A program made the position numbers and the translations under genes. Positions 1-60,230 of a stretch of DNA of 64,000 nt are shown one piece after another (the first letter of the stretch is position 1; each line of letters starts with the position of its first letter). The DNA comes from Candidatus Zambryskibacteria bacterium RIFCSPLOWO2_01_FULL_39_39. GTDB taxonomy: Bacteria > Patescibacteriota > Minisyncoccia > Phycocordibacterales > WO2-35-19. The notes under the pieces were generated by a model that was not told the origin of the DNA, searched no databases, and saw nothing but the letters and a program-made list of their open reading frames with translations. The stretch covers positions 9,338 to 73,337 of the forward strand of contig MHWB01000013.1 of NCBI GenBank assembly GCA_001823925.1, read 5' to 3'.

Positions 1-1277
1 TCACCTTCTTTAAGGATGCTATGCATAGGAGAAAGTTTGCCGTTTATTTTTACTCCCGACATTTTGTTGCCTATATCTGAATGGATCAGATAAGCAAAAT
101 CAATAGCCGAAGATCCGACCGGCAAATCAACCACATCCCCTTTGGGTGTAAAAACGAATATTCTCTCGCTTAAAAAATCTTTCTTTATTTCTGTTACTGA
201 ATGTGGAAGCATAGATTCTATCCACGGCGTCAGATGCTTTCTGTCGCCTCCTTTATAAAGAGCGTGAGCGGCCACCCCATACTCTGATTCATGATGCATT
301 TCTTCTGTTCGTATTTGTATTTCTACTAAATCTCCGTTTCCGGTAAATACAGTGGTGTGCAAACTTTGGTAGCCATTTTGTTTTGGGCGGGCAATATAAT
401 CTTTGATCCTGCCAGGCAAAGGTTTCCAAGAAGAGTGAATGATGCCAAGTGCTCGGTAGCAATCCTCGGTTTTTTCAACAGTCAATCTAATTGCCAAAAT
501 ATCGTATATTTTTTCAATATCCTTTTTATTTTTTAAATATTTTTTGTACAGACTGTATAGACCTTTGACCCTGTAGTCAGAACGAAAATTGACGAAACTG
601 GCCTTGGCCAACTCCTTCATAACTGATTTCATAAATTTCTCTAGATTTTCAAGTCTCTCGCTATAATTTTCCTTGAAGACGGAAGATATTTCAGCATATC
701 CATCTTTGTAGACAAAGGGAAATGCCAAATCTTCAAGCTCGCGAGAAAGTTTGCGGATACCAAGGCGATAAGCAATAGGAGCATAAATCTCCAATGTTTC
801 TCTGGCGATTCTTTCTTGTTTTTCTAATGGTAAGAAAGAAAGAGTGCGCATATTGTGAAGACGGTCACAAAGTTTTACCATGAGGACTCGGATATCTTTT
901 GAAGTTGCCAAGAGTAATTTGCGCAATGATTCGTTGTGACGATCGGCTCCGTGGTATTTTAAAGCGCCAAGTTTAGAAACACCCAAGACTATAAACAAAA
1001 CTTCTTTACCAAATTCTTTCTCAATCATTTCAGGTGGGGTCTCTGTATCTTCTAAAATGTCGTGCAAAAATCCAGCCACGATAGTTGTAGTATCCATCCC
1101 CAACTCGGCAATATTTTTGGCTGTTTCAAAAAGGTGATTAAAATACGGCTCGCCACTCAGGCGTCTTTGTCCCTCATGCTTTACTCTGGCAAATTCATAT
1201 GCTTTTTTTATAAAATCCTTTTCCTCCTCGTCAGCTTTAATTAAGAGAGATATTAATTTTTCTAAGTCTTTTTCCAT
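1..1277 (-). CDS. relA: Bifunctional (p)ppGpp synthetase/hydrolase RelA/SpoT family, C-terminally truncated by window edge
   Basis: Minus-strand translation from ATG at 1277 (RBS GGAAGGAG) gives MEKDLEKLISLL...HD domain motif (HDILEDT), RelA/SpoT synthetase region (LHTTVF...EIQIRT) and TGS-like region. Runs off window start so absent from ORF track. Confidence 0.8.
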   Translation of the reverse strand, partial: MEKDLEKLISLLIKADEEEKDFIKKAYEFARVKHEGQRRLSGEPYFNHLFETAKNIAELGMDTTTIVAGFLHDILEDTETPPEMIEKEFGKEVLFIVLGVSKLGALKYHGADRHNESLRKLLLATSKDIRVLMVKLCDRLHNMRTLSFLPLEKQERIARETLEIYAPIAYRLGIRKLSRELEDLAFPFVYKDGYAEISSVFKENYSERLENLEKFMKSVMKELAKASFVNFRSDYRVKGLYSLYKKYLKNKKDIEKIYDILAIRLTVEKTEDCYRALGIIHSSWKPLPGRIKDYIARPKQNGYQSLHTTVFTGNGDLVEIQIRTEEMHHESEYGVAAHALYKGGDRKHLTPWIESMLPHSVTEIKKDFLSERIFVFTPKGDVVDLPVGSSAIDFAYLIHSDIGNKMSGVKINGKLSPMHSILKEG

Positions 1278-3580
1278 CTCCTTCCTATTTTTTTAGGCTC
1301 TTTTAATATTTCGAGAGCGCGTTCTAGAGTTATTTTATATACATCGTCTGTTTTGAGAGAACGAAAATCTTTTTGGTGGACGATATATGGTCCAAACCTG
1401 CCAATATTGGCAGAGATCATTTCTCCTGTTTCTGGCTGTGGCCCAAGCTCTCTTGGTAAACTCAAATATTTGAGTGCTTCATCCAAAGTAACACTATTTG
1501 GATCTTTATCTTTGGGGATACTTGATCTCCTTGGTTTTTCTTTCTTTTCTTTTTTAGTTTTTTCTTTTGGATTTGGTGCTTCGGATTTTGAATTTTGTCC
1601 CCCCAACTGTACATAAGGCCCAAACCTACCGTCCATTATAAAAACCGGAAGCCCTGTTGCACTGTCAACTCCAATAGGTTCTGCTTCCTTTATTTCAGAA
1701 CCGTCAATATTTCGCATACCCTTGCAATCTGGAAATTTTTCGCAACTCAAAAATTTGCCTCCCTTACCGAGCTTGATTATCATACCTGCGCCACAGATGG
1801 GGCATTTAAGTTTGGGATCGGCGTCTCCTAGGTTAGTGAGTTTGGCCGTCTTTTCCTTTTCTTTTACATCTTTCAAAAATGGTTTATAAAATTCTCGCAG
1901 AGTTGGTTCGTACTCTCTTTTACCTTCTGCAATTTGGTCAAGTTCATCTTCCATTTCGGCAGTGAAGGTGTCGCTTATATAATTTTCAAAATTATTTTCT
2001 AAAAATGTTGAGACGACATCGCCGGTGTCTGTCGGTTTAAGTGTCCGACCATCTTTATCTACATAACCTCTATCTATGATGGTACCGATGATAGAAGCAT
2101 AGGTGCTAGGTCTGCCAATACCCCTTTTTTCCAATTCTTTGATGAGCCCAGCTTCGCTATATCTGTTTGGTGGTTCGGTCTGTTTTTCTTCTTGTTTTAA
2201 ATCTAATAAGGAAAGATTATCTCCTTGTTTAACTTTTGGCAACAAGGTATCCTCACTCTTTGCTTCTGGGTCAGCCATGAGCCAGCCACTTTTTATAACT
2301 CGGGAGCCATTGGCTGCAAAATCTGGGACGGTGGCAATGTCAAAGACGGGCTTTTTGGAAATTTCTTCAAAGCCCGTCTTTGACATTGCGGACACCTGCG
2401 CCGTTATCTTGGTACGCATCATCAAGGCATCTTGCATTTGGGAGGCGACAGCTCTCTGCCATATCAGTTGGTACAACTTCTTTTGATCATCATTTGCGCC
2501 AGCATTCTCTTTTTCAAAATGAGTGGGCCTTATCGCTTCGTGAGCCTCCTGGGCATTTTTGGATTTAGTTTTATAAGTGCGAATTTGGTGAAGTTCTGCT
2601 CCAAATTTTTTTGTTACCACACTTTTTATTTGCCCCAATGCTACAGTCGCCATATTTAAACTATCAGTACGCATATAGGTGATGTGTCCAGCTTCATAAA
2701 GTTTTTGAGCCACCATCATCGTCCGCTTAGGACTAAACCCTAGTCTAGTACTTGCTACTTGTTGTAAAGTAGAGGTGGTAAAAGGGGCTTTGGGCGCTCT
2801 CTTTACTTCGGTCTCGGTCACATCTTTGACAGACCAAACTCCTTCTTTGGCTACATTATAAATTTTATCCGCCTCAATTTTTGTTTTTGGTTCTTCCTCG
2901 CAAAAAGCAGTGAAGGTAGCAATGTCAAGGGCGGGCTTTGAAGAAATTTCCAAAAAGCCCGCCCTTGACATTGCACCCACTTTCAAATTTGCAGAAATAA
3001 CGAAAAATGTCTCTGGTTTGAAAGCTCGTATCTCTCGCTCTTTTTCCATTAGTATTCGCAAAGCTGGGGATTGAACTCGGCCAGCCGAAAGACCGTATCT
3101 GACTTTTTTCCAAATAAGTCCCGATAAGTCATATCCCACCAGTCTATCAAGCACCCTTCTGGCTTCTTGGGCCTTTCTCAAATTTTGATCAATACTTCTG
3201 GGGTGTTTGAGAGCTTCCTCGATCGCTTCCTTGGTAATTTCGTGATAAGTAACTCTGCTAATCTTTTTCTTGCTTCCAAAATCATCTTTAATTATTTCAG
3301 CCAAGTGCCAAGCGATAGCCTCACCTTCTCGGTCGGGGTCGGTCGCGAGCAAAACTTCATCTGCCTTTTTTACAAGAGCTTTTATCTCTGCGACCACCTT
3401 TTCTTTACCCTTTGAAATTTCATAGTGGGGGATAAAGCCACCTTCTATGTCGATGGCTTTTTTATTACTTTTTGGCAGATCACGAATATGGCCGACGCTA
3501 GCTACAACCTCGTATTCACTTCCTATATATTTGCCAATAGTTTTTGCTTTGGCAGGGGATTCTACAATTAATAATTTCAT
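1262..3580 (-). CDS. topA: DNA topoisomerase I
   Basis: 772 aa; N-terminal TOPRIM MKLLIVESPAKAKTIGKYIG, C-terminal Zn-ribbon CPICGAGMII...CEKFPDC; carries two in-frame palindromic insertions (see repeats). Confidence 0.9.
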   Translation of the reverse strand: MKLLIVESPAKAKTIGKYIGSEYEVVASVGHIRDLPKSNKKAIDIEGGFIPHYEISKGKEKVVAEIKALVKKADEVLLATDPDREGEAIAWHLAEIIKDDFGSKKKISRVTYHEITKEAIEEALKHPRSIDQNLRKAQEARRVLDRLVGYDLSGLIWKKVRYGLSAGRVQSPALRILMEKEREIRAFKPETFFVISANLKVGAMSRAGFLEISSKPALDIATFTAFCEEEPKTKIEADKIYNVAKEGVWSVKDVTETEVKRAPKAPFTTSTLQQVASTRLGFSPKRTMMVAQKLYEAGHITYMRTDSLNMATVALGQIKSVVTKKFGAELHQIRTYKTKSKNAQEAHEAIRPTHFEKENAGANDDQKKLYQLIWQRAVASQMQDALMMRTKITAQVSAMSKTGFEEISKKPVFDIATVPDFAANGSRVIKSGWLMADPEAKSEDTLLPKVKQGDNLSLLDLKQEEKQTEPPNRYSEAGLIKELEKRGIGRPSTYASIIGTIIDRGYVDKDGRTLKPTDTGDVVSTFLENNFENYISDTFTAEMEDELDQIAEGKREYEPTLREFYKPFLKDVKEKEKTAKLTNLGDADPKLKCPICGAGMIIKLGKGGKFLSCEKFPDCKGMRNIDGSEIKEAEPIGVDSATGLPVFIMDGRFGPYVQLGGQNSKSEAPNPKEKTKKEKKEKPRRSSIPKDKDPNSVTLDEALKYLSLPRELGPQPETGEMISANIGRFGPYIVHQKDFRSLKTDDVYKITLERALEILKEPKKIGRRWKKT
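2335..2388. repeat. 54-bp palindromic element (TGTCAAAG stem) inserted in frame in topA, encodes MSKTGFEEISKKPVFDIAT
   Basis: tgtcaaagacgggcttt / aaagcccgtctttgaca perfect 17-bp stems around loop ttggaaatttcttcaa. Confidence 0.7.
2920..2973. repeat. Second copy of same palindromic element in topA, opposite orientation, encodes MSRAGFLEISSKPALDIAT
   Basis: tgtcaagggcgggcttt / aaagcccgcccttgaca stems; loop is reverse complement of loop of copy at 2335. Confidence 0.7.
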
Positions 3581-3688: not shown

Positions 3689-3714
3689 CCCCTCTCCTAG
3701 ATGTAGGAGAGGGG
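3689..3714. repeat. GC-rich hairpin cccctctcct-agatgt-aggagagggg (possible bidirectional terminator between topA and flp-like gene)
   Basis: perfect 10-bp inverted repeat in AT-rich intergenic DNA; member of CCCTC..GAGGG hairpin family. Confidence 0.5.
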
Positions 3715-3807: not shown

Positions 3808-4251
3808 TTACATCCCATCGTTTCTGTCGTTCTCAGCCCGCTCCTTCCGGCGCAGGACGATCAAACTAAGGAAAAGTGCTGCCAGAATGGCGGCTCCTAC
3901 TCTCACGATAAGCGTAGGTATGTCTCGCAGAGACAAAATTTTACCCACAATCGGGGTAACTGTTTCTGCCACTGAGCCGAAGGTTACCACGACGGCGACG
4001 GCGACAAAGCCGGCCATCAATGCGTATTCAACCAGATCCTGACCGCGAGTGTCCGCGGACATCGACCTGAAAAAGTCGTTGGTTGACCGGCAGATCACGC
4101 GTCGCCGGTAGTAAATCAAGAGTCCCGCCACAAAAATCAGCGGGAACACAACAACAAACAAAAGACCCATACCCATAACGTAACGCCTCCTATCCACAAG
4201 TATAGCATAGTTGGCACTTCCTGTCAAGATGTCAAGGTTCGACCTTGACAT
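3808..4251 (-). CDS. Flp/Fap-family type IVb pilin-like protein (true start probably internal GTG near 4130)
   Basis: Motif RGQDLVEYALMAGFVAVAVVV matches Flp prepilin G/xxxxEY cleavage motif plus hydrophobic helix; lies in a ~450-bp segment of markedly higher GC than flanks. Confidence 0.45.
   Translation of the reverse strand: MSRSNLDILTGSANYAILVDRRRYVMGMGLLFVVVFPLIFVAGLLIYYRRRVICRSTNDFFRSMSADTRGQDLVEYALMAGFVAVAVVVTFGSVAETVTPIVGKILSLRDIPTLIVRVGAAILAALFLSLIVLRRKERAENDRNDGM
4229..4251. repeat. Short palindrome atgtcaagg-ttcga-ccttgacat flanked by tgtcaag direct repeats
   Basis: perfect 9-bp stems; same TGTCAAGG family as 11970. Confidence 0.6.
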
Positions 4252-4255
4252 TGTG

Positions 4256-5146
4256 TCAAGAAAGCCTTATTTCACCGAGAGTTTCTTTGATGAGGCACTT
4301 GAGTTCCAAAAGAGAGAGTAGAGTTTGGGTTTCGCCGACTGATATCTGGTGTTCCAGATTTGCCTGTCTCAAAATCTCATCGCGTGGCAATGGTTCTATC
4401 AAAAGTTTTATAATGAGCATTTCTTTTTCCGAACAATCAAAATATTTTTCCTCGTCACTCTGAGACTTTGCGGAAGCAGACTCATCATTTTCCAAATGCA
4501 ACGCTTCCAATAAGTCGTCACTGTCCCTTATTGGTGTGGCTCCAAGACGAATGAGCATATGAGGACCTTGGCTTGTGGTATTAAAAATACTGCCAGGTAG
4601 AGCTAAGACATCTCTATTATATTCGGTCGCTAATCGCGCAGTGATTAAAGTACCTGACTTTTTTTCTGCTTCTATCACCAATGTGGCATGGCTCATACCA
4701 GCCATAATCCTATTTCTTTGAGGGAAGCTCCATTGGGTTGCTTTGAATTCTGAATCAAATTCGTTTAAGAGTGTGCCGCCTTTTTCTACGATTTCCTCTG
4801 CCAGACGAGTATGTGACTGAGGGTGTAAGACATCTAATGAAAGTCCCGAGCCGGGCACGGCGATGGTGGGCAAGTTGTTTTTGAGGGCGGCTCTATGAGC
4901 GATAGAGTCAATGCCTAAAGCCAGACCGGAAACGATAGTAATGGGATAATTTTTCAAACCTTCTATAAAAGTTTCGACCGCCTCCTTTCCATAACTTGTG
5001 TTTTTGCGAGCGCCGACTATGCACAAAAGCTTCCTCTCCCAGTCTGGTATTTTGCCCACATAAAGCAGTTTTTTTGGTAGTTGATTGATTTCTTCCAAGA
5101 GTGGCGGCCAATCTTTTCTCTCTAATTTTTTGATTTCATATTTCAT
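4256..5146 (-). CDS. dprA: DNA processing protein DprA (Smf)
   Basis: 296 aa; Rossmann-like DprA core LCIVGARKNTSYGKEAVE...SGLALGIDSIAHRAAL... Confidence 0.85.
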   Translation of the reverse strand: MKYEIKKLERKDWPPLLEEINQLPKKLLYVGKIPDWERKLLCIVGARKNTSYGKEAVETFIEGLKNYPITIVSGLALGIDSIAHRAALKNNLPTIAVPGSGLSLDVLHPQSHTRLAEEIVEKGGTLLNEFDSEFKATQWSFPQRNRIMAGMSHATLVIEAEKKSGTLITARLATEYNRDVLALPGSIFNTTSQGPHMLIRLGATPIRDSDDLLEALHLENDESASAKSQSDEEKYFDCSEKEMLIIKLLIEPLPRDEILRQANLEHQISVGETQTLLSLLELKCLIKETLGEIRLS

Positions 5147-6880: not shown

Positions 6881-7267
6881 ATGAACTCTAAATTTCTTTA
6901 TAATAATAAAGTTTTGAGAGATCGCAGACAAGAGTTAAGAAATGGTGCGACTGAATCGGAAAAAATTCTTTGGAATAATTTGAAACACAGTAAACTCGGA
7001 GGTTTTAAATTTGTAAGACAGTATAGTGTTGGCCCTTATATTCTGGATTTTTATTGTCCAAAATTGCGATTGGCAATAGAATTAGATGGAAGCCAACATA
7101 GCGAGCGAGATGCAATTTTGTATGATAAAGATAGGAATGATTATTTGGACGCTGTGTATATAAAAGTTTTGAGATTTTGGAATATGGAGATAACAAAAAA
7201 TATAAAAGGGTCGATTGATAAAATTTTACAAGAAATACTTAAAGTAGCAGACCCCCTCTTAAAATAA
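6881..7267 (+). CDS. DUF559 (Vsr-like restriction-endonuclease fold) domain protein
   Basis: 128 aa; ILWNNL...FKFVRQYSVGPYILDFYCPKLRLAIELDGSQH...RNDYLD..YIKVLRFWN.EI matches DUF559 pattern; same domain is embedded inside tgt at 49915-50160. Confidence 0.75.
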   Translation: MNSKFLYNNKVLRDRRQELRNGATESEKILWNNLKHSKLGGFKFVRQYSVGPYILDFYCPKLRLAIELDGSQHSERDAILYDKDRNDYLDAVYIKVLRFWNMEITKNIKGSIDKILQEILKVADPLLK

Positions 7268-11287: not shown

Positions 11288-12355
11288 ATGAATTTTTGGA
11301 ATGAAATGAAAAAGCCGATACTTTGTCTCGCGCCATTAGCAGATGTTACTGATGTGGCTTTTAGGCATATTATTGCTAAATATTCGAAAGAAATGTCAAA
11401 GGGCGCCTTCGAAATGCCCCGGTCCCAGAAGGCGCCCTTTGACATTTCTACCTACGTTACTTATACCGAATTTGTTTCGGCCGATGGACTTGTTTTGGCT
11501 CCGGAAACAGGTAGGAGAAGACTCTTAAAAGATTTGGAATATTCTGAAATAGAAAGGCCGATCGTGGCACAACTTTTTAGCAGTAATCCAGAGAATATGA
11601 AAAAAGTTGCTTCTCTTGTTATGGAATTAGGTTTTGATGGTGTAGATATAAATATGGGTTGTCCCGATAAAAGTGTAGAGAAGCAGGGAGCTGGTGCCGC
11701 CCTTATAAAGAACCCAAAGCTTGCAAGAGAAATAATAAGATATGCAAAGACAGGTATAAAAGAAGCAGCAGAGAGGCTGGGTAAAGAAGAAATACCGCTG
11801 TCAGTAAAAACCAGACTTGGTTATAACGATGATGAGTTAGAAAGTTGGTTGCCAGAATTATTGGCGGAAAATCCGGCAGCTATTATTATCCATGCTCGCA
11901 CAAGGAAAGAAATGTCTAAAGTCCCTGCTCGTTGGGAGCGTATCAGACGTGCCGTTGAGATAAGGGATGAAGTGTCAAGGTTCAACCTTGACACTCAAAA
12001 AACTTTAATAATTGGTAATGGAGATGTTTTAGATGTTGCAGATGCAATAAAAAAATGTGAAGAGAGTGGCGCAGACGGGGCCATGCTCGGGAGAGCAGTT
12101 TTTGGCAATCCTTGGCTCTTTTCTACCCACGTGCCGACCGCTTCCGAAAAATTAAAAGTCTTGCTGGAACATATTAAACTTTTTGAAGAAAAATTGGGTG
12201 GGGTAAAAAATTTTGCTGTTATGAAAAAACATTTCAAAGCTTACCTTTCTGGTTTTCCTGTTGGTAGTGATTTTAGACTAAAAGAATTAAGAGATAGGCT
12301 CATGCAAACAAAGGACGCTAAAGATGCGGAGATTTTGTTAAGCGAATACTTATAA
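11288..12355 (+). CDS. dusB: tRNA-dihydrouridine synthase (DusB-like) carrying two in-frame palindromic insertions
   Basis: 355 aa; LAPLADVTDVAFRHI...YTEFVSADGL...DINMGCPDK...IHARTR...GNGDV motifs of Dus family. Confidence 0.8.
   Translation: MNFWNEMKKPILCLAPLADVTDVAFRHIIAKYSKEMSKGAFEMPRSQKAPFDISTYVTYTEFVSADGLVLAPETGRRRLLKDLEYSEIERPIVAQLFSSNPENMKKVASLVMELGFDGVDINMGCPDKSVEKQGAGAALIKNPKLAREIIRYAKTGIKEAAERLGKEEIPLSVKTRLGYNDDELESWLPELLAENPAAIIIHARTRKEMSKVPARWERIRRAVEIRDEVSRFNLDTQKTLIIGNGDVLDVADAIKKCEESGADGAMLGRAVFGNPWLFSTHVPTASEKLKVLLEHIKLFEEKLGGVKNFAVMKKHFKAYLSGFPVGSDFRLKELRDRLMQTKDAKDAEILLSEYL
11391..11447. repeat. 57-bp palindromic element in dusB (20-bp perfect stems aaatgtcaaagggcgccttc, loop gaaatgccccggtccca), encodes MSKGAFEMPRSQKAPFDIS
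   Basis: insertion sits where Dus family has short KYG-to-TEMVSA linker; loop shared with elements at 21781 and 25994. Confidence 0.7.
11970..11994. repeat. Short palindrome agtgtcaagg-ttcaa-ccttgacact inside dusB (encodes VSRFNLDT)
   Basis: perfect 10-bp stems; family member of 4229 copy. Confidence 0.6.
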
Positions 12356-12866: not shown

Positions 12867-12991
12867 AAATTTGTGTTTATGCTATTCTAAAAAAAGACAA
12901 GTACCACTGAAACTAAAAGAGAAAACTACAAAGTTTTTATATGCAGATTTCTCCTTTAGCTTCAAAAATAAAATAAGAAAGGATGCACTAA

Positions 12992-13387
12992 ATGATAAGA
13001 CGAGGATTAGTGGCTTTGACAATAATCGCCATCAGGACTTCTGATGCCTCCAAGCCCATGGCTTTGGGGGCGAAAGATATTCCTAGTTGTCAGATTTTGG
13101 GAGAGGCAGAGGTGACATATTATGGTGGAGATTTTCACGGCAGGCCAATGGCCAACGGGAAGGTTTTTGACAAAGAAGACCCAACCATTGTTGCTTCGCC
13201 GATTTTAGACATGGGCAGACGAGTGAGGATCACACACGTTGCAAACAGGAAGAGCATTGAAGTAGTGGTCCAAGACAGGATGCCCAAAGATGCTCCTCTC
13301 AACGCTTTGGATGTTTCTGAGGCAGCCGCTCGTAAGCTCGGGATTCAGACAGTTGGTCGAGCTAGGCTCTTTGTAGAAGCGTACTAA
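12992..13387 (+). CDS. RlpA-like double-psi beta-barrel (DPBB) domain protein
   Basis: 131 aa; TYYGGDFHGRPMANGKVFD...RVRITHVANRKSIEVVVQDRMPK...LDVSEAAARKLG matches RlpA/3D domain pattern; higher GC than neighbours. Confidence 0.65.
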   Translation: MIRRGLVALTIIAIRTSDASKPMALGAKDIPSCQILGEAEVTYYGGDFHGRPMANGKVFDKEDPTIVASPILDMGRRVRITHVANRKSIEVVVQDRMPKDAPLNALDVSEAAARKLGIQTVGRARLFVEAY

Positions 13388-20229: not shown

Positions 20230-22224
20230 CTATAACAAATTATCTGGATCTGTCTTAATCTCAAAGTGGGGAGGTAAAGATTTTAAAATAGAAAAAAGAG
20301 CAGAATCTACCCATTTTTCTTTGGGTATTTTAATGACGGCATTTATGGCAGATTGCTCACCCCTTTTTTCATGAATGGATGGGAAAATGGTGGCGCTATA
20401 ATTTTTATTTTCGGAATTTTCAAACACATTCTTCAACACTTGAGTTTCTTTTCCGACAAAACTTTTAGTGCCTCTCACTGTTATTTTTATAAAAATACTA
20501 AAAGGTGGGTAACTTAAAACCGCGCGATCCTCTATTTCCTTTTTATAAAATTCTATTAAATTGCCACTTCTTGCAAATTCTACAGTTGAATCTTTTGGGT
20601 TTCTGGTCTGTATCAAAAGGTTTTCTTTGGCTATACTTTTGGTTTGTAAAATAAGACGGAAAATTTTTTCTCTGATACGAAAATCAGGAATAGAGAATAG
20701 GGAATCAAAAGAACAAATAGCACTACTTCCCACTTTTTTATAAATATAAGAGAGAGCCATCTCGGTACCCAAAAGTATTGAGCCTTTATTTTCATAAAAG
20801 TTTTTGATTACATTTAAGGCTTTGGCGTTTGTTTCAACAATATCTTTGTGTAATTCAAAAAGATTTATGTTTGGGACACTCTTTCTTAATTCTTCGGCTA
20901 CTCTGTCAATACCAGAACCAAATGCCGCAAGCTTCCAGCTGTGACAATTTTGACAAACTTCTGCCGCGTCTCGTGTTTCGCCACATTGATGACATTTAAA
21001 AACGGCGCCATTTTGGGTACTTTGGTCCGGAGATGTTTTAGTTTTATATAAGATCATAGGAGATGAGCAGTTGAAACATTTTACCTGTTCTCCGCAGTCA
21101 CGGCAGACAGTAACCGACGATAAGCCTTTTCTAGCCGCAAATATAAACATATTAGAACCTTTTTCTATGGTTTTTTTGATTAAATTTAGTAATTCTGGCG
21201 ATATGGTTTTGAATTCTTTTCCTTGCCCCAATTCTTTCAAGTCTATTATGGTCGTTTTGATTTCAAGAGGCATTCGCCATTTGACGTTTTCAAATTCAGA
21301 TACTTCCCCTTGTTTGTATCTGTATAAAGTTTCTATTCTCAAAAAAGAATCTCCAATCACGGTACGGATATTTTTTTTATTAGCCAAAATTTCAGCAAAA
21401 AATCGAAGGTCTATAAAAGGTCGCGATAAAGTTTTCCAACCAGTTTCATTTTCTTTATCTATAATAATGGTGCCGAAATCTAATCTTGGCAAAAATAACC
21501 ATTTGGCTGTGGCTATAATTAATACAGGATGCTTTGTTTCGCATGCCCTTTTCCATTCCTTGATTAAATCCTTTTTCTTCATTTCATTATGAAAAGTGCA
21601 GACAAAGGATTCTATACCACGTTCTAGTTTTTCCTGAGTTTTTCGCACGTTTTCATTTTGAGGTAAGCATAGAAAAACTGATTTTTTCTTAGCAAATTCT
21701 TCCCTGATAAGAGATTTATAAAGATCTAATCTTTCCTCGTTTGGAGCTTGTAAGATAGCAATTTCATTTTTAATACTGTCGTTGCCAAGGACAGTCCTTA
21801 AACTGCCCCGGTCCCAAAGGACTGTCCTTGGCAACTGAAGCAAGTTTGGGTTTTCTAAAATGAAAGAAGGAATAAGTTGGGGAATAATATTGCCTTCTGT
21901 GGCGACAAAATATTTGGCCGTCTCTCTCACCGCTTCCAAGAATTTTTTTTGTAAAAATGGTTTAGCAGTTACGGCTGAAATTTTTTTTAATTGAAAATTT
22001 GCGGATTTTATAGAAAGTTTTGCCTCTGTCACGTCCTTACTTTCTAAAACCAAAGCTGAAACACTTTTTCCTCTAATGTTTATTTTTAACAAAGAACCGG
22101 GCTCTAAATATTTAGGTCCAAAATATGACAGTGACTCTTTACTCAAACCTTTTGAAAGTGGTAGACATTCTATGATAAACATATGCTTTAAGTAAAAAGC
22201 AAAAAGCCTAAAGTAGCAAGTCAT
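20230..22224 (-). CDS. priA: Primosomal protein N' (PriA helicase) with in-frame palindromic insertion
   Basis: 664 aa; helicase core plus Cys4-Cys4 zinc module CRDCGEQVKCFNC...CHQCGE...CQNCHS. Confidence 0.85.
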   Translation of the reverse strand: MTCYFRLFAFYLKHMFIIECLPLSKGLSKESLSYFGPKYLEPGSLLKINIRGKSVSALVLESKDVTEAKLSIKSANFQLKKISAVTAKPFLQKKFLEAVRETAKYFVATEGNIIPQLIPSFILENPNLLQLPRTVLWDRGSLRTVLGNDSIKNEIAILQAPNEERLDLYKSLIREEFAKKKSVFLCLPQNENVRKTQEKLERGIESFVCTFHNEMKKKDLIKEWKRACETKHPVLIIATAKWLFLPRLDFGTIIIDKENETGWKTLSRPFIDLRFFAEILANKKNIRTVIGDSFLRIETLYRYKQGEVSEFENVKWRMPLEIKTTIIDLKELGQGKEFKTISPELLNLIKKTIEKGSNMFIFAARKGLSSVTVCRDCGEQVKCFNCSSPMILYKTKTSPDQSTQNGAVFKCHQCGETRDAAEVCQNCHSWKLAAFGSGIDRVAEELRKSVPNINLFELHKDIVETNAKALNVIKNFYENKGSILLGTEMALSYIYKKVGSSAICSFDSLFSIPDFRIREKIFRLILQTKSIAKENLLIQTRNPKDSTVEFARSGNLIEFYKKEIEDRAVLSYPPFSIFIKITVRGTKSFVGKETQVLKNVFENSENKNYSATIFPSIHEKRGEQSAINAVIKIPKEKWVDSALFSILKSLPPHFEIKTDPDNLL
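21781..21835. repeat. 55-bp palindromic element in priA (stems ttgccaaggacagtcctt, loop aaactgccccggtccca) encoding LPRTVLWDRGSLRTVLGN
   Basis: near-identical to intergenic copy 25994-26048. Confidence 0.75.
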
Positions 22225-22257: not shown

Positions 22258-23028
22258 ATGAATTTATCTTTTGATAAAAAACTAGCAGATAATTATACAA
22301 GTCAATCTCAAAAAATCAGAGTTTTAACTGAAGATTGGGTTGATAATCAAATTTTTTGCCCAAATTGTGGACATCTTAATATAGATAAATATGAAAATAA
22401 TAAACCAGTCGCCGATTTCTTCTGTTCAAATTGTAAGGAAGATTATGAATTAAAAAGTAAAAAAGAAACAATTGGCAATAAACTTGTTGATGGTGCATAC
22501 CACACGATGATTGAAAGATTGCAAAGTAGTAATAACCCTAATTTTTTTCTTCTTAATTATGATTTACAAAATTTTGAGGTTTTAAATTTTTTTGTCATTC
22601 CAAAACATTTCTTTATTCCAGATATTATAGAAGAACGCAAAGCATTATCCCAAACAGCAAGGCGTGCTGGTTGGATTGGTTGTAATATTTTACTACAGAG
22701 CATTCCGCAAAGCGGAAAAATATTTTTTGTAAAAAATCGTCAAATTGAGTCAAAAGAAAAAATTCTCGCAAAATGGCAAAAAACGCTATTTCTCCGAAAA
22801 GAAAAAGAAATTAGTGCAAAAGGTTGGCTTTTAGATATAATTAATTGTATTGAAAAATTAAAAAATAAAGAATTTACCATTGATGAAATTTATGTTTTTG
22901 AAAGTTTTTTATCCAAAAAACATCCTGAAAACAAATATATCAAAGACAAAATTCGTCAACAACTACAGATTTTGAGGGATAGGGGGTATTTATATTTTAT
23001 TAGCAGAGGAATTTATAAAATAAAATGA
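22258..23028 (+). CDS. DpnI-like Type IIM (methyl-directed, G-m6A-TC) restriction endonuclease / Dam-replacing protein family
   Basis: 256 aa; segments SQSQKIRVLTEDWV, CPNCGH, KPVADFFCSNC, ELKSKK, DGAYHTM, NNPNFFLL, RRAGWIGCNI, KIRQQLQILRDRGY match my recollection of DpnI/DRP family. Confidence 0.6.
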   Translation: MNLSFDKKLADNYTSQSQKIRVLTEDWVDNQIFCPNCGHLNIDKYENNKPVADFFCSNCKEDYELKSKKETIGNKLVDGAYHTMIERLQSSNNPNFFLLNYDLQNFEVLNFFVIPKHFFIPDIIEERKALSQTARRAGWIGCNILLQSIPQSGKIFFVKNRQIESKEKILAKWQKTLFLRKEKEISAKGWLLDIINCIEKLKNKEFTIDEIYVFESFLSKKHPENKYIKDKIRQQLQILRDRGYLYFISRGIYKIK

Positions 23029-25373: not shown

Positions 25374-25991
25374 ATGCATCACGCCAATATCATAATAAGC
25401 AGAGAAGATTGTCGGGATTATGTTTTTGATATTTTAGAAAAAGATTTAAATTTTAATATTAAAGCCAACCCCGATTTTTTGCTTGTAGAAACAGAATCTT
25501 TCAGTATAGATCATGCCAGGGATCTGATAAAATGGTCTATTGGCAAAGCCCTAGTGGGTGAAATAAAAGTTTCCTTGATTATCGTAAAATCTATAACCTT
25601 AGAAGCTCAAAATGCTCTGCTTAAAATTTTGGAAGAATCACCAGAAGGCACTTTTATTTTTATTAGTTTAGAAAATTTGGGGGGAATTTTGCCCACACTT
25701 GTTTCAAGAGTCAGGATTTTAAATTTACACAAGGAAGTTAACAATTTGGAAGATGATGCCCAAAAGTTTTTCTCTTCCAAGATTAAAGACAAACTTTCTG
25801 TCATACGCACTCTTTCAAAAAAAGAAGACAAGAGTGATATAAAAGAACTTATAAAAAATTTAGAGCAAATAGCTTATCAAAATAAGGCGTCGGCAAATCA
25901 TATAAAAAACGTATTAACCGCAAAGATTTTTGCTAGTACCAGGGGGTCTTCCCCCAAGATGCTTTTAGAATGGTTATCAGCCGTGTTATAA
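25374..25991 (+). CDS. holB: DNA polymerase III delta-prime-like subunit (short, no P-loop)
   Basis: 205 aa; QNALLKILEESPEGTFIFISLENLGGILPTLVSRVR resembles HolB sensor region. Confidence 0.55.
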   Translation: MHHANIIISREDCRDYVFDILEKDLNFNIKANPDFLLVETESFSIDHARDLIKWSIGKALVGEIKVSLIIVKSITLEAQNALLKILEESPEGTFIFISLENLGGILPTLVSRVRILNLHKEVNNLEDDAQKFFSSKIKDKLSVIRTLSKKEDKSDIKELIKNLEQIAYQNKASANHIKNVLTAKIFASTRGSSPKMLLEWLSAVL

Positions 25992-25993
25992 TA

Positions 25994-26048
25994 GTTGCCA
26001 AGGACAGTCCTTAAAATGCCCCGGTCCCAAAGGACTGTCCTTGGCAAC
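25994..26048. repeat. Intergenic copy of 55-bp palindromic element (holB-frr spacer)
   Basis: ttgccaaggacagtccttaaaatgccccggtcccaaaggactgtccttggcaa; 1 nt different from priA copy. Confidence 0.75.
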
Positions 26049-26052
26049 TTAA

Positions 26053-26601
26053 ATGTTTGATTTTTCGGAATTAAAAATAAAAAGCAAAGACATAGAAAAC
26101 TGGCTTAGCAAAGAGCTTTCGGTTATTCGTACTGGCAGAGCTACCCCGGTTATTCTTGATTTTGTACAAGTAGAAGCTTATGGCTCAAAGATGTCTATCA
26201 AAGAATTGGCCAATATTTTAGTGGAAGACGCTAAGACGGTGAGAATAGAGCCGTGGGATTTGAGCGTTGGCAGAAGTATTGAAAAGGCAATAGGTTCTTC
26301 CAACTTAGGACTTTCTGTTGCCCCATTTGAAAAAGGGTTAAGAATTATTTTTCCCGAGCTAACTGCCGAAAGAAGAGAGCAGTTTGTCAAAGTGGTTGGT
26401 AAACAACTTGAAGAGGCCAAAGTATCACTGCGAAATCTACGTGATAAAACTTGGAAGGCGATTGAAGAAAAAGAAAAATCTGGTGGTATGGGTGAAGACG
26501 ATAAGTTTAGAATGAAAGAAGAAATGCAGAAGATAATAGATGATACAAGTAGAAAGCTGGAAGAGTCGGCAGATAAAAAAGAGAAGGAGATAAAGATTTA
26601 A
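26053..26601 (+). CDS. frr: Ribosome recycling factor
   Basis: 182 aa; typical Frr sequence LSVIRTGRATPVILDFVQVEAYG. Confidence 0.9.
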   Translation: MFDFSELKIKSKDIENWLSKELSVIRTGRATPVILDFVQVEAYGSKMSIKELANILVEDAKTVRIEPWDLSVGRSIEKAIGSSNLGLSVAPFEKGLRIIFPELTAERREQFVKVVGKQLEEAKVSLRNLRDKTWKAIEEKEKSGGMGEDDKFRMKEEMQKIIDDTSRKLEESADKKEKEIKI

Positions 26602-42892: not shown

Positions 42893-42923
42893 TGAAAAGA
42901 TGGGATAAAACTTTGAAGGTGAC

Positions 42924-42977
42924 CTTTTGGAGCAGGGGACAGTTTAAAGGTCACCTTCTCAAAAAAATTTGCTATAA
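42924..42977 (+). promoter_or_regulatory. 13-bp inverted repeat gaaggtgaccttt/aaaggtcaccttc followed by TATAAT (-10), upstream of T4CP-like gene
   Basis: perfect IR with 18-nt loop at 42924-42967, -10 hexamer at 42972-42977, ATG at 42987. Confidence 0.35.
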
Positions 42978-42986
42978 TAAACGGGT

Positions 42987-45743
42987 ATGGAATATAAATT
43001 CCCATTGCCAAAAGAACCTTTTAAAAATAGAGAAGATGAGATCTCTCATTTACGCAAATTGATTGCCGAAAAAGAAAAGAATTTAGAAAACATTGGTTTA
43101 AAAAAAGATTTTTTAACACCAGCCAAAGAGGCTATCACAGAATACAAGACGGCTCCCACCACTTCAGCGCTCCATCCTGAATATGAAATAAAAAAAGAAG
43201 AAATAGACAAAATCGTACTCAAACTTTCTCCCGAAGAGCACGACAAACAAATAAATGAACTGGTAAATTTGGCCAAAGAAAAGGGCATCAAAAACGCTCT
43301 CTCGGTAGTAGAAAAAATGGGTAATTTCCATATTACCGATGATTTCCATCGTTTTATTGCTGAGTATTTGAAAGAAGGTGCTACTCTCCCCGGTATAAAT
43401 ATTAAAGAGAAAATTTCCAAAGGTTTAAATATGTCTCTTTATGAAATTTTAATACCGGAAGAAAATGATAAGAGCGGTGTTAAAAATACTTTAGAAGAAG
43501 TGATCTCCGGAATGGAGCAATTTTATGCTGGCATGCTCTCTATCTCGGACAGCAGTAAGCAAGAGGAAAATTGGATATCTTTAGAGATAGCTAACGCCAA
43601 TTTTTCTCAAGAAATAATTTTTTATGTGGCGGTACCGTCTTTGCGCAAAAGTCTTTTTGAAAAACAAATTCTCTCTATTTTTCACAATGCTAAAATCACC
43701 GAAAAACCAGATGACTACAATATTTTCAATGAAAAAGGTGTGACTTCTGGCGCTTTTGCCTCTTTTTCCAAAAACCCAATTTACCCTATCAAAACTTATG
43801 AAAGCTTTATCCACGATCCGCTCAATGTGATACTTTCTGGTTTTTCAAAAGTAAACAGAGATGGGGAAGGGGCGGCTATCCAACTCATTTGGTCACCCTC
43901 GGGAGACAAATATGTCAAAAAATATAAAAGCGCTTTAGGTAAACACCAAAAGGGCACACCACTCAAAGAGGCCATCGATATCCCCGATGGTGTTTCGGAA
44001 GAAATTTTACACACCTTTAAAGATGTATTCTTCTCGTCTTCAAAGTCTGGAAAGAAAGATGATTTAGATAAAAAAAGAGAAGGCATCGATGAAGGTGCTG
44101 TAGCCGAAATAAACAAAAAAATAACAGCGCCAATCGTTAGGTGCAACTTGCGCCTTCTTACATCTTCAAATACTAAAGAGGAAGCCGAAGAAATCTTAAA
44201 CAGCTTAAAATCGAGTTTCAATCAGTTTGATAATACTTTGGGCAATGCTTTTGAATGGAAAAAGGCAGAAAAGGGTGATTTGCGAAACTTAGTCAAAAAT
44301 TTTAGTTTTCGTATTTTTGATGACTCTTCTGCTTTGCCGATGAACTTGCGAGAAGTGACTTCAATCATGCATTTCCACACCAAAGCTTTGAGCGCTTCCG
44401 AGGGCCTGCGCCAATCTAGATCGGCTACTGCTCCGGCGCCACTCGATATTGGCAAGGAGGGGATACTGCTTGGTGTAAACAACCACCGTAATGAGAAGAC
44501 AGAGATAAAAATAACTGCTGATGATAGGCTGAGGCACTTCTATTGTATCGGACAGACTGGTACTGGTAAGACGACTCTGCTTAAAGAGATGATTATTCAA
44601 GATATGCAAATGGGTCACGGTGTTTGTATGATCGACCCTCACGGCTCTGACCTGCAATCTGTTTTGGCCAATGTGCCACCCGAGCGTTTCGAAGATGTCA
44701 TCTATTTTGATCCGGCATATACCGCGAGGCCCTCGGCTTTAAATATGCTTGAATATGATGAAAATTTCCCAGAGCAAAAAACTTTTGTGGTCAATGAGCT
44801 TTTTAGTATTTTTAGAAAATTATATGGCAATGTCCCAGAATCAATGGGTCCAGCTTTTGAACAATATTTTAGAAACTCGGCGCTTTTGGTGATGGACGAT
44901 CCAAGTTCAGGTAATACTCTAGTTGATATGTCGCGGGTGCTGTCAAACAAAGCTTACAGAGACCTCAAAATATCTAAATGTAAAAATCCTCTGGTGAAGC
45001 AGTTTTGGGTCAATGCCGAAAAGACGACCGGCGAGCAAGGTTTGTCCAACTATGTACAGTATGTTACCAACAAATTTGATGTCTTTTTGGCAAACGATAT
45101 TATGCGACCAGTTATTGCTCAAGAAAAATCTTCTTTTAATTTCCGCGATATTATGGACAATAAAAAAATACTTCTGGTCAATCTTTCTAAAGGCAGGCTG
45201 GGGGATATCAATGCAAATTTAATAGGACTTATTTTGGTGGGTAAGATACTCATTGCCGCCCTTTCTAGGGTGGATAGTTTTGGCAAAGATTTTCCGCCTT
45301 TCTATCTATATATAGATGAGTTTCAAAATATTACTACCGACTCCATCTCCACCATTTTATCTGAAGCCAGAAAATATAAACTTTCTTTAAACATTGCTCA
45401 CCAATTTATTGCTCAATTGGAAAAGGGTATTAGCGATGCCGTCTTTGGCAACGTCGGCTCCATATGCGCCTTCAGAGTAGGAGCCGAAGATTCTGAGACT
45501 TTGGAGAGTCAATTTGTACCCACTTTCTCTAGTAACGACCTAATGAATATAGACAATTATAATGCTTACTTGAGACTTCTGGTAAATGGCAAACCGGCCA
45601 AACCCTTCAATATAGAAGTGCCACCACCACCCTCGGGGGACATAAATCAGGTAGAAAAACTTAAAGAAATGTCATATCTCAAATACGGCAAACCTCGCGA
45701 AGAGATAGAGAAGCTCGTAATGGAAAAATATAAAATAGCCTAA
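42987..45743 (+). CDS. Soluble TraD/VirD4/TrwB-like P-loop NTPase with ~500-aa non-ATPase N-terminal region
   Basis: 918 aa; Walker A IGQTGTGKTT followed by MIDPHGSDL, Walker B YLYIDEFQN, C-terminal KYKLSLNIAHQF...FRVGAEDSETL like coupling-protein all-alpha/TraM-recognition region; no TM helices. Confidence 0.5.
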   Translation: MEYKFPLPKEPFKNREDEISHLRKLIAEKEKNLENIGLKKDFLTPAKEAITEYKTAPTTSALHPEYEIKKEEIDKIVLKLSPEEHDKQINELVNLAKEKGIKNALSVVEKMGNFHITDDFHRFIAEYLKEGATLPGINIKEKISKGLNMSLYEILIPEENDKSGVKNTLEEVISGMEQFYAGMLSISDSSKQEENWISLEIANANFSQEIIFYVAVPSLRKSLFEKQILSIFHNAKITEKPDDYNIFNEKGVTSGAFASFSKNPIYPIKTYESFIHDPLNVILSGFSKVNRDGEGAAIQLIWSPSGDKYVKKYKSALGKHQKGTPLKEAIDIPDGVSEEILHTFKDVFFSSSKSGKKDDLDKKREGIDEGAVAEINKKITAPIVRCNLRLLTSSNTKEEAEEILNSLKSSFNQFDNTLGNAFEWKKAEKGDLRNLVKNFSFRIFDDSSALPMNLREVTSIMHFHTKALSASEGLRQSRSATAPAPLDIGKEGILLGVNNHRNEKTEIKITADDRLRHFYCIGQTGTGKTTLLKEMIIQDMQMGHGVCMIDPHGSDLQSVLANVPPERFEDVIYFDPAYTARPSALNMLEYDENFPEQKTFVVNELFSIFRKLYGNVPESMGPAFEQYFRNSALLVMDDPSSGNTLVDMSRVLSNKAYRDLKISKCKNPLVKQFWVNAEKTTGEQGLSNYVQYVTNKFDVFLANDIMRPVIAQEKSSFNFRDIMDNKKILLVNLSKGRLGDINANLIGLILVGKILIAALSRVDSFGKDFPPFYLYIDEFQNITTDSISTILSEARKYKLSLNIAHQFIAQLEKGISDAVFGNVGSICAFRVGAEDSETLESQFVPTFSSNDLMNIDNYNAYLRLLVNGKPAKPFNIEVPPPPSGDINQVEKLKEMSYLKYGKPREEIEKLVMEKYKIA

Positions 45744-52121: not shown

Positions 52122-53168
52122 ATGCAAAATGTAGCCTTAATAATATTAGCGGTTGGGCTTTTGGTGGCCGTTTTTGCTTTGCTTAAGAGAAAAACAGAGT
52201 CAAAAACAGACGATGGTGCTATGAAGCTTCTTTTGGAGCAGATGAACGAACTCTCTCGAGTCGTGGATAGAAAAATAGGAGAAACAACCAAACAAGTAAA
52301 TGAATCAATGAAAGATCAATTCAGAGAATCAAGCAAGCTTATTCGTGATGTGACTCAAGGCTTGACCAAGCTTGATGAGACCAATAAACAAGTGATCTCT
52401 TTTGCTGATCAGCTTCAAAATTTGCAAGATATTTTAAAAAATCCAAAACAGCGAGGGATTTTGGGTGAATATTATTTGGAAACACTTTTAAAAAATGTTT
52501 TGGCGCCGGCTCAATATCAAATGCAGTATGTATTTGGAAATGGCGAAATCGTAGATGCGGTAGTATTTGTCAAAGACAAAATAATTCCGATCGATTCCAA
52601 ATTTTCTCTTGAAAATTATAATCGTCTGATAGAAGCCAAAGACCCGATAGAAAAAGAGAGACTGGAGAAGATCTTTATAAATGATCTTAAACTACGCATT
52701 ACCGAAACATCAAAATATATCAAACCCTCAGAAGGCACTATGGATTTTGCCTTTATGTTTATCCCGCACGAGGCTATTTATTATGATTTGCTTATAAACA
52801 AAATAGGAGCAGTGGTTGAAGATACCGAAAATCTGATCCAAAGAGCGGCTGGCAAATATAAAGTGATTATTGTCTCGCCCACCTCTTTCTTGGCCTATCT
52901 TCAGACTGTCTTACAGGGTCTCAAAGCTATGCAAATAGAAGAAACGGCCAAAGATATTGTGAAGCGTGTCGGTGAGCTGTCCGAACACCTCAAAAAATAC
53001 GAAACATATCATAATAAACTCGGAAATTCACTAGAGACGGTGGTCAACCATTTCAATGCTTCCAGTAAAGAATTTAAAAAAGTAGACAAAGATGTGGTGC
53101 GCATCACTGGCGTCTCTCAGTCCTTTGATGTGCCTGTTTTGGATAAACCTGACAACGATTCTATATAG
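52122..53168 (+). CDS. rmuC: DNA recombination protein RmuC
   Basis: 348 aa; N-terminal TM, coiled coil, RmuC nuclease-like C-terminal (RGILGEYYLE, VDAVVF, IDSKF, FMFIPHEA). Confidence 0.75.
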   Translation: MQNVALIILAVGLLVAVFALLKRKTESKTDDGAMKLLLEQMNELSRVVDRKIGETTKQVNESMKDQFRESSKLIRDVTQGLTKLDETNKQVISFADQLQNLQDILKNPKQRGILGEYYLETLLKNVLAPAQYQMQYVFGNGEIVDAVVFVKDKIIPIDSKFSLENYNRLIEAKDPIEKERLEKIFINDLKLRITETSKYIKPSEGTMDFAFMFIPHEAIYYDLLINKIGAVVEDTENLIQRAAGKYKVIIVSPTSFLAYLQTVLQGLKAMQIEETAKDIVKRVGELSEHLKKYETYHNKLGNSLETVVNHFNASSKEFKKVDKDVVRITGVSQSFDVPVLDKPDNDSI

Positions 53169-57508: not shown

Positions 57509-57510
57509 AA

Positions 57511-57759
57511 ATGATGTATACTTTATTGCAGAGGTGGTCCGTGAATAACCAACTTCGTTTTCCACCCGATTGTCATGTGGTCGGGGAGGTTTCTGTCTCC
57601 AGACAAGGAGAATTAGAAACCAGTAACGTGTACGTTGAAGGTATTCACCCAGAGTTACACCTTTATGGTCCAGTCTCGTACCAACAAAAAGGGGATGGTA
57701 GTTTGGAAACGATAGTGAGAGTTGTTACGGGGTTGCCGCCGGAGGTATTTTTGGGATGA
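57511..57759 (+). CDS. Hypothetical protein at edge of high-GC island
   Basis: 82 aa ORF starting 3 nt after htpX stop. Confidence 0.25.
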   Translation: MMYTLLQRWSVNNQLRFPPDCHVVGEVSVSRQGELETSNVYVEGIHPELHLYGPVSYQQKGDGSLETIVRVVTGLPPEVFLG

Positions 57760-57876
57760 AGAATATGAGTATGGGATGGCACAATCCTCGTTGTCGTCCC
57801 TTTTTATATATAAATTATTTTGGAAATGAAAATGGCTCTATCCAATTGGATAAAGCCATGGTACTACGTATATTGC

Positions 57877-59289: not shown

Positions 59290-59370
59290 AAGATTTCCCC
59301 CTTTCCTCCATAGTATGTCAAAAATCTACTTGAGATTTCTGAGGGGTATTATAACTAAGTGGATTATTTT

Positions 59371-59408
59371 TGTCAATACATTGACATTGTAATAAAAAAA
59401 TATATAAT
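59371..59408 (+). promoter_or_regulatory. Consensus sigma70 promoter TTGACA-16-TATAAT overlapped by palindrome TGTCAATACATTGACA (candidate operator)
   Basis: -35 59381-59386, -10 59403-59408, RBS AAGGGAG before ATG 59436. Confidence 0.55.
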
Positions 59409-59435
59409 ACAGATAGAAAAAAGGGAGAACATTTC

Positions 59436-60170: not shown

Positions 60171-60230
60171 CCGAGTAGAAAACAACCCCAAGACCATATG
60201 GCCCTGGGGTTTTTGTATCCATCTAGGAAA

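Follow-up and report, generated by a model that had tools for sequence, protein, structure and literature searches.

A family of short hairpin-forming repeats in dusB and other genes of Patescibacteria, probably spread as selfish or neutral DNA

Why should a perfect palindrome sit in frame inside the gene of a tRNA-modifying enzyme, in a genome that is about 94% coding? The question is raised by a 64,000-nt stretch of contig MHWB01000013.1 from Candidatus Zambryskibacteria bacterium RIFCSPLOWO2_01_FULL_39_39 (hereafter the window; about 38% GC), in which the tRNA-dihydrouridine synthase gene dusB (11306–12355, + strand; PF01207) carries a hairpin-forming element at 11389–11449 on the + strand. 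The two arms (11389–11410 and 11428–11449) are perfectly complementary and 22 nt long each, where the initial annotation of this DNA had given 20, and they enclose a 17-nt loop (11411–11427) with the sequence GAAATGCCCCGGTCCCA. This class-A hairpin scores 80.3 bits with a covariance model that was built from 28 copies and run with filters off. It is translated in frame as E-MSKGAFEMPRSQKAPFDIS, a net gain of 19 amino acids (aa; 57 nt), so that the translated open reading frame (ORF) reads EMSKGAFEMPRSQKAPFDIS across the whole hairpin region; GAFEMPR and SQKAPFDISTYVTYTEFVSADGLVLAPETGR are candidate tryptic junction peptides derived from the element. We consider it probable (about 0.68) that the dusB palindrome is one of a set of ~57-nt DNA hairpin repeats that have spread as selfish or neutral DNA through gene-dense Parcubacteria/Patescibacteria genomes.

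DusB of the window, which is 100% identical to protein P0001 of Parcubacteria bacterium GW2011_GWA1_38_7, was compared with its 120 closest orthologues (57–72% identity by search, 309–416 aa in length). Because the insertion site is empty in 49 of these 120 proteins, which read ...AKYSK-IP-YVTYTE at this position, the comparison indicates that the dusB copy is a real insertion, and the 19 aa are added at a linker as initially annotated. The remaining orthologues display highly diverse inserts at the same site and at two to three further hot spots. In the AlphaFold model of window DusB (overall predicted local distance difference test score, pLDDT, 86; predicted template-modelling score, pTM, 0.87) the insert is a coil with a pLDDT of 53–64 between helix 17–33 and strand 51–58, and it thus models as part of a variable, low-confidence surface loop. 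The second hot spot of window dusB is occupied by a solo arm, that is, a collapsed element, of the form AGTGTCAAGGTT-C-AACCTTGACACT (11971–11995, unstranded, E 0.011), which is read as EVSRFNLDT; full elements are present there in orthologues. In two related loci, L146 and L154, the arms and flanks at the dusB site are shared and the loops point in opposite directions. Longer inserts of 23–48 aa were noted at the DusB hot spots of P0010, P0018, P0022, P0039, P0042 and others. They form other recurring families, e.g., FSPSAGFADFSSKNTASVETFSA and ...SSLSTDISLLGNSSARLSQPAQGTLE..., which suggests additional insertion-element families at shared permissive sites.

The loop sequence TGCCCCGGTCCCA is present in three hairpins of the window, located in dusB, in priA and at the holB–frr junction, in agreement with the common loop core described initially. 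Three exact occurrences of the loop 13-mer were counted in the 64 kb; when 2 mismatches were tolerated, a set of 100 shuffled sequences averaged 0.6 matches, and none of them reached 4 or more. The class-A hairpin in priA (21781–21835, + strand, 77.6 bits) lies within the gene of primosomal protein N′ (20230–22224, − strand), to which its loop is antisense, and is read in frame from the − strand as LPRTVLWDRGSLRTVLGN. It is located in the hypervariable PriA linker, where many orthologues contain element-type peptides with drifting loops (WDRG, WGRG, WNRD, WDRD, MPQSQ, LPQSQ) and some an unrelated Lys-rich linker instead. The third class-A hairpin (25993–26049, + strand, 81.6 bits) fills the whole gap between the stop codon of a holB-like gene (25989–25991) and the ATG of frr (26053). 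Its stems are identical to those of the priA copy, and the loops of the two are 1 nt apart. The holB–frr junction is likewise occupied in L126, L139, L141 and L145; in L145, a complete element stands beside a truncated remnant of another. As side observations, the hairpin leaves no space for a conventional Shine–Dalgarno sequence ahead of frr (25989–26053), and in L126 and L141 the holB-like ORF reads through the element, so that the gene ends at the junction are altered. Folded as single-stranded DNA, the window hairpins reach −22 to −27 kcal/mol, corresponding to z values of about −8 to −10 relative to shuffled sequences.

Alignment of the copies revealed a common layout: an outer stem, [TG][TC]C, is followed by a 13-nt arm, AARG-N5-CYTT, a 17-nt asymmetric loop with the consensus GAAMTGCCCCGGTCCCA, the inverted arm and the outer stem again (with its leading base the arm reads CAARG-N5-CYTT). 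The elements are 43–65 nt long, typically about 57 nt, and richer in GC than the genome. Over the 13 bp next to the loop, 373 of 377 pairs in 29 unique copies are Watson–Crick pairs, with two G:T pairs and two mismatches; pairing declines beyond about 19 bp. The ends of the arm are invariant or two-state, and its five central positions are hypervariable yet always compensated. Among 28 distinct copies from many genomes, both sides have changed at 14 of 20 stem pairs, and 92% of the stem cells are paired versus 72% in shuffles. Neither the observed pairing nor the covariation was reached by any of 500 shuffles (0/500), and pairing collapsed in slid-register controls. The earlier observation of stems that differ yet remain self-complementary through compensatory changes was thus confirmed on a larger sample.

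Furthermore, the arms are palindromic themselves, with intra-arm pairing of 87% versus 78% in shuffles. Columns 12, 20, 42 and 50 show exceptionless four-way covariation (15 copies have A,T,A,T and 13 have G,C,G,C), a number of arms form perfect 13-mers with one base in the middle, and the centres of the two AARG-N5-CYTT palindromes are 30 bp apart. Since each arm is a mini-palindrome in its own right, the element is a doublet of inverted palindromic units with a 17-nt spacer, resembling a miniature REPIN (a hairpin-forming doublet built from REP, or repetitive extragenic palindromic, sequences). The loop behaves differently from the stems. In copies that had not been selected on the loop, it drifts, shortens or gives way to another loop class, with the stems remaining perfect, and because the loops of the PriA orthologues drift as well, the exact loop is a family consensus and not an invariant sequence. 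The initial annotation had spoken of a conserved loop, which has to be revised accordingly. Several known site types were rejected from this anatomy. Integron attC sites have conserved outer R″/R′ boxes (RYYYAAC ... GTTRRRY), a variable centre and extrahelical bases; in the present elements it is the loop that is conserved, bulges are absent from the perfect stems, and two copies have GTTGCC...GGCAAC ends, the opposite arrangement. The other types rejected were dif/Xer sites, DNA uptake sequences, terminators and CRISPR repeats.

A genome scan with a 16-mer, using one genome per species, yielded at least 117 matches. Flanking stems were found in 4 of the 117 matches listed, and all 4 belong to metagenome-assembled genomes of Patescibacteria. 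The other 113 listed are stemless chance matches in GC-rich genomes of other phyla and therefore serve as a negative control. In a set of 30 metagenome loci retrieved with a more specific loop pattern, chiefly from groundwater 0.1-µm fractions, all 31 motif matches (31/31) were inside hairpins. The motif thus proved to be enriched and its stems complementary, as the initial annotation had expected. In total, the hairpin was found in at least 34 further Patescibacteria loci beyond the window, and the covariance model detected about 50 copies in 241 kb of related loci. Within the window, the model gave six confident loci, starting at 25991, 11389 and 21778 (78–82 bits), 2918 and 2333 (43–47 bits) and 42908 on the − strand (36 bits), as well as weak matches to short palindromes at 11968 and 4225. 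The viral contigs scanned contained six motif matches, none of them with a stem (0/6). No Rfam family matched the element; only tRNAs exceeded the gathering score in the window, and a permissive Rfam scan of the dusB copy returned sub-threshold generic-hairpin matches only.

Most copies fall in genes because these genomes are so densely coding: 25 of 30 unique copies are within ORFs of at least 200 codons, 12 in sense and 13 in antisense. The host genes in the window are topA, dusB and priA, and the host ORFs in the fetched loci encode unrelated housekeeping proteins, namely TatD, KsgA, Dus, RecG, RNase R, cysteine desulfurase, ComEC, LepA (two copies in one gene), a class-I aminoacyl-tRNA synthetase (aaRS), the delta-prime subunit of Pol III, ribosome recycling factor and a metallo-β-lactamase-fold protein. 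Five of the six frames are used, yielding five unrelated peptide series, one of which consists of similar peptides of the form SKGxFEMPRSQKxPFD. In the sixth frame, which is never used, there is always a stop, T[GA]A, at the stem–loop junction. As five frames and both orientations of one DNA sequence are read, the peptide is not the conserved object, in line with the initial annotation. Surviving copies keep the reading frame of their host and use one of the five stop-free frames, implying ordinary translation.

Homologous copies occupy non-homologous sites, and empty orthologous sites exist; together these findings show that the copies arise and spread by insertion. A target-site duplication was lacking in 23 of 30 copies, versus about 21 expected from permuted flanks. 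Comparison of orthologous copies showed how the elements change in place. L139 and L145 have largely different, fully compensated stems (21/65 differences) at 84.5% flank identity. In other pairs the loop is inverted relative to its flanks, as observed for L122 and L134 (88% flank identity), for L127 versus L135 and L147, and for the window copy at 25993 versus L139. Over 30 copies the loop is in sense in 14 and in antisense in 16, so no transcription bias was seen, and no GC-skew strand bias was detected either (14:16). Eroded copies are present too, and solo arms were found in the window at 11971–11995 and 4218–4262 and in L155. Loop remnants abut the elements at 2 of 84 flanks versus 0.32 expected (in L145 and at window 2324–2336, next to the copy at 2334). 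Such occasional remnants are real, and they are too few for a claim that the elements target each other's loops.

Based on the alignments, we favour the view that the structure matters at the DNA level and not at the RNA level, because G:T pairs and mismatched intermediates are nearly absent despite the hypervariable arm centre, because loops flip in place and because there is no strand bias. The scarcity of such intermediates, the loop flips and the lack of strand bias also point to active arm-to-arm conversion. After insertion, the arms of a copy would be kept complementary by replication template switching at the quasi-palindrome, and the same process could flip the loop in place. Conversion of this kind explains the missing intermediates equally well as, or better than, selection on the hairpin. 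The initial annotation had proposed such selection; the hairpin itself is indeed maintained, with strong covariation, but perfect arms need not mean such selection. Its further suggestion of RNA processing is unlikely in view of the 14 sense and 16 antisense loops, the in-place flips and the near-absence of G:U-type pairs (2/377). Copies would subsequently decay by drift or shortening of the loop. Slippage between short direct repeats within the arms might delete the loop together with one arm, an in-frame loss of 30 nt, after which a solo arm and eventually an ordinary linker would remain. A mobilising activity probably recognises the shared loop and arm ends on folded single-stranded DNA; candidates are a trans-acting HUH/Y1-type enzyme and a replication/repair route of the host. 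We also considered a bolder and rather doubtful version, in which ultra-short mobile hairpins specific to Patescibacteria would spread without a dedicated transposase. Host replication and repair would propagate and mend them through template switching on the folded single strand, the conserved loop serving as the site of breakage or priming, and much of the variation in protein length and of the ‘linker’ sequence in proteomes of the candidate phyla radiation (CPR) would stem from them.

Several findings weigh against a family of spreading selfish or neutral hairpins. Because a loop pattern was used to find the loci, ascertainment accounts for part of the loop conservation in the main sample. 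Some orthologous copies are far better conserved than their surroundings: L042 and L125 do not differ in the element (0/65) versus 18% flank divergence over 578 nt, and L119 and L131 differ at 2/65 positions versus 19% in the flanks, which could reflect purifying selection for a host function. Likewise, occupancy recurs across diverged genomes (DusB site 1; holB–frr in at least five), which could indicate function or target specificity. The stem variants form a discrete repertoire that is common to different genomes and combined with different loop classes, and homogenisation of stems within genomes was not supported (4.03 versus 3.79 mismatches per 13). Simple within-genome bursts do not predict a discrete shared repertoire without homogenisation. 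Presence and absence were seen between orthologues of about 55–75% identity only, not between near-identical strains, and a scan of 50 window ORFs gave no match to a transposase or HUH family.

Which activity could have moved the elements? A specific version of the preferred explanation, mobilisation by a REP-associated tyrosine transposase (RAYT) as in REPINs, is a possibility to which we assign a minor share of the probability. A doublet of inverted palindromic units with a spacer and solo remnants are defining features of REPINs (PMC3116915), no target-site duplication was found, and a conserved loop and conserved arm ends around an arm centre kept for structure only would fit a hairpin-recognising enzyme. 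However, no PF01797-type protein was found among the 50 window ORFs scanned. REP palindromes have a GTAG-type tetranucleotide conserved at their 5′ foot, whereas the column composition of 29 copies shows no GTAG-like 5′ tetranucleotide, the feet being [TG][TC]CAA. Moreover, the elements lie inside genes whereas the definition of REPs places those outside genes, they are about half the size of described REPINs, and their orientation lacks the GC-skew bias of IS200/IS605-type transposition, which favours one replication strand. The initial annotation's idea of a RAYT or IS200-like mobiliser gains architectural support from the mini-palindromic arms, arranged like a REPIN doublet, and from the missing target-site duplications, but not from the 50 window ORFs scanned, which gave no such enzyme, or from the intragenic location. 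A classical miniature inverted-repeat transposable element (MITE), i.e., a deletion derivative of a DDE-transposase insertion sequence (IS) mobilised in trans via terminal inverted repeats, would also be small, repeated, composed of inverted repeats and non-coding for a transposase. We consider this origin very improbable, as target-site duplications do not exceed chance, the whole element is one hairpin instead of two terminal repeats flanking an unrelated core, conservation is weakest at the outermost ends, and neither the window nor the loci showed a related IS.

Other explanations dispense with selfish spread. The hairpin could be host-functional, acting in cis on mRNA (as an RNase III site, as a pause site for ribosome or polymerase, or in stability) or on DNA (as a site for a dimeric protein at the two AARG-N5-CYTT palindromes). 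In favour of a host function, L042 and L125 are far better conserved in the element than in the coding flanks, identical sites are occupied across diverged genomes including the holB–frr junction, the arm ends are invariant with a discrete stem repertoire, and the symmetric stem forms in RNA whichever its orientation. We nevertheless regard this explanation as unlikely because the inserts are dispensable among orthologues (about 41% of DusB orthologues have none, and others have unrelated inserts or decayed remnants), the loop orientation is random with respect to transcription and the host genes share nothing. In addition, G:U-type pairs are nearly absent, unlike in functional RNA helices, there is no Rfam match, and a perfect 20-bp helix in essential coding DNA is more likely a burden than a regulator. 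If the 19-aa peptide were itself the functional unit inserted into proteins, one would expect what is seen in part, namely insertion always in frame within ORFs and similar peptides in one frame. This protein-module reading is already contradicted by the use of multiple frames, in which one DNA yields five unrelated peptide series; copies lie between genes too, the insert is a low-confidence coil in the model, and many orthologues are missing it. Finally, template-switch mutagenesis might generate and diversify hairpins locally, at fragile or permissive sites, with convergence in sequence and without any mobility. Template switching can create or perfect palindromes and invert spacers (PMC6649704), and hot spots do recur among orthologues. 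However, an identical 17-nt asymmetric loop with shared arm ends at dozens of unrelated sites and genomes cannot arise independently, and the priA and holB–frr copies are near-identical over 55 nt at unrelated loci; the sequence identity of copies at non-homologous sites effectively refutes convergence.

A census of the window comprises three TGCCCCGGTCCCA hairpins, one diverged copy, two copies with other loops in topA and two solo arms. The diverged class-A copy (42915–42958, − strand, 35.7 bits) has a 13-bp perfect stem and the loop AAACTGTCCCCTGCTCCA on the − strand, and is probably intergenic, upstream of a VirD4/TraG-like gene at 42987. That gene (42987–45743), which lies directly downstream of the hairpin copy and of a tRNA-Glu, encodes a 918-aa protein with weak matches to TraG/TraD/VirD4-type coupling proteins and HerA-type ATPases and may be part of a mobile or secretion-related module. 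The topoisomerase I-like gene topA (1262–3580, − strand; named from its translation) hosts two unstranded class-B hairpins. The one at 2334–2389 (43 bits) has 21-bp arms, GCAATGTCAAAGACGGGCTTT, and the loop TTGGAAATTTCTTC, and is read as AMSKTGFEEISKKPVFDIA; the other, at 2919–2974 (46.6 bits), has the loop GAAGAAATTTCCAA and is read as AMSRAGFLEISSKPALDIA. Their loops are reverse complements of each other. An inverted-repeat scan and the hairpin census showed that these 56-nt palindromes have the stem end AATGTCAAAG in common with the dusB copy and differ from it in the loop. A degenerate class-A loop remnant, TGCCACCGTCCCA, with 2 mismatches (2324–2336, − strand) abuts the topA copy at 2334 to form a compound. 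Outward-facing TTGACA (−35-like) hexamers were noted in the dusB and topA stems and are limited to a subset of stem variants. A solo-arm-type palindrome of TGTCAAG/CTTGACA units (4218–4262, unstranded, E 0.13) overlaps the start (MSRSNLD...) of the ORF at 3808–4251 (− strand), just downstream of dprA.

Hairpins of other kinds were also noted. An AT-rich, near-perfect 59-nt hairpin (12907–12965; RNA fold −27 kcal/mol) between a PAP2 gene and the ORF at 12992–13387 scores weakly with the family covariance model (E 0.007) and probably represents a terminator-like structure outside the family. A second short hairpin, CCCCTCTCYT-N3-8-ARGAGAGGGG, with an 11-bp stem, is likewise unrelated to the family and is intergenic in several Patescibacteria contigs. 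It is found in the window at 3689–3714, between the ORF at 3808–4251 and topA, in L120 (8920 and 10000), L122 (8648), L136 (7874) and L139 (4948), and in L128 at 1556 and 3116, i.e., at both ends of comEC. This hairpin could be a conserved terminator-like structure or a second repeat family. GC-rich perfect palindromes of 21–22 bp in L131 (948–991) and L142 (5129–5174) represent yet another type (gcccaacgtcggacatagggcg|cgccctatgtccgacgttgggc). Among the genes of the window, a DpnI-family (methyl-directed) restriction endonuclease gene (22258–23028) adjoins priA, and a DUF559 gene with a Vsr-like endonuclease fold lies at 6881–7267; neither has an evident link to the hairpins. The widespread RmuC family is represented at 52122–53168. 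In Escherichia coli, RmuC has been linked to how fast short inverted repeats undergo inversion, and the gene could be relevant to loop flipping. The part at 57000–64000 has a GC content of 0.43–0.48 versus about 0.38 elsewhere, most of its ORFs are without a Pfam match, and a weak HATPase_c_3 match lies within it at 60231–61742; it may be a horizontally acquired region or a defence island.

Small selfish hairpins thus appear to have colonised essential genes (topA, priA, dusB, recG, lepA, rnr, comEC, an aaRS gene and others) across a major lineage of ultra-small groundwater bacteria, the genomes of which tend to be seen as streamlined, with little mobile DNA. They would explain part of the protein insertions and length variation in CPR bacteria, as in DusB with its 309–416 aa and few hot spots, and would mislead annotation, alignment and structure prediction. 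The copies provide a natural data set on perfect palindromes that persist in coding DNA, with a bearing on quasi-palindrome template switching. A REPIN-like build within genes means either that REP/RAYT biology reaches into a new setting or that some other activity mobilises the elements. In practice, the covariance model and the motif offer a simple metagenome marker for these lineages. Full-text literature searches found no description of such elements in Parcubacteria or other CPR/Patescibacteria, which is no proof of novelty, and a 2026 cross-genome hairpin survey does not mention the CPR/Patescibacteria phyla.

How do the hairpins compare with known systems? The GC clusters of yeast mitochondria are short, proliferating, hairpin-forming repeats of compact genomes. 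Similar repetitive hairpin-forming elements of sponge mitochondria, short, proliferating and sometimes located within coding regions, are described in PMC2800124, and the bypass (‘byp’) elements of Magnusiomyces mitochondria are cited in PMC6649704. These elements are organellar and mostly intergenic or skipped by translational bypassing, whereas the copies described here keep the frame and are stop-free. Coding palindromes in Nematomorpha mitochondria are, like ours, perfect inverted repeats inside translated genes, and their ‘binary’ arm identity has been read as active arm conversion, possibly by template switching, and as parasitic (PMC6649704). However, they extend up to 284 bp, both of their arms encode conserved native protein and they are not dispersed copies, in contrast to the one short inserted family found here. 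Bacterial MITEs such as Correia, ERIC and RUP are small non-autonomous inverted repeats with occasional in-frame fusions (PMC10969869). They possess terminal inverted repeats, duplicate their target sites and derive from a parent IS, and as a rule they are AT-rich and lie between genes, whereas the present elements are mostly intragenic and GC-richer than the genome, with neither a target-site duplication nor an IS seen in the window.

The closest resemblance is to the Rickettsia palindromic elements (RPEs) and to REPINs. RPEs are inserted in frame in unrelated housekeeping genes as tolerated peptide segments, have no known transposase, measure about 150 bp and fall into ten families, each with a conserved peptide in one frame (PMC10969869); their arms lose identity with time (PMC6649704). 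The hairpins are likewise palindromic repeats of a reduced, gene-dense genome, and 25 of 30 copies are in frame in unrelated housekeeping ORFs. In contrast to RPEs (about 100–150 bp, one conserved peptide, diverging arms), they are about 57 nt long, are read in five frames and both orientations, and possess near-perfect arms and a conserved asymmetric loop. The host phylum is different as well, and in view of phylum and element size a sequence relationship to RPEs is not expected. REPINs are doublets of inverted palindromic units that adopt a long hairpin or clover fold, with singlets as defunct remnants, and are non-autonomous selfish DNA (PMC3116915). The inverted palindromic doublet, the solo arms as remnants and the absence of target-site duplications are features that our elements share. 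However, REPs and REPINs are extragenic and cluster beside a RAYT gene, and in the type example a distance of about 71 bp separates the REP units; of the copies described here, 25 of 30 are in ORFs, no RAYT was found among the 50 window ORFs scanned, and the spacer is 17 nt long and, as the loop, as conserved as the arm ends. Because the defining features of both families fail, with an intragenic location and no RAYT found on the one side and a length of 57 nt and five reading frames on the other, the hairpins of dusB, priA and the related loci are a variant that resembles RPEs and REPINs and is distinct from both.

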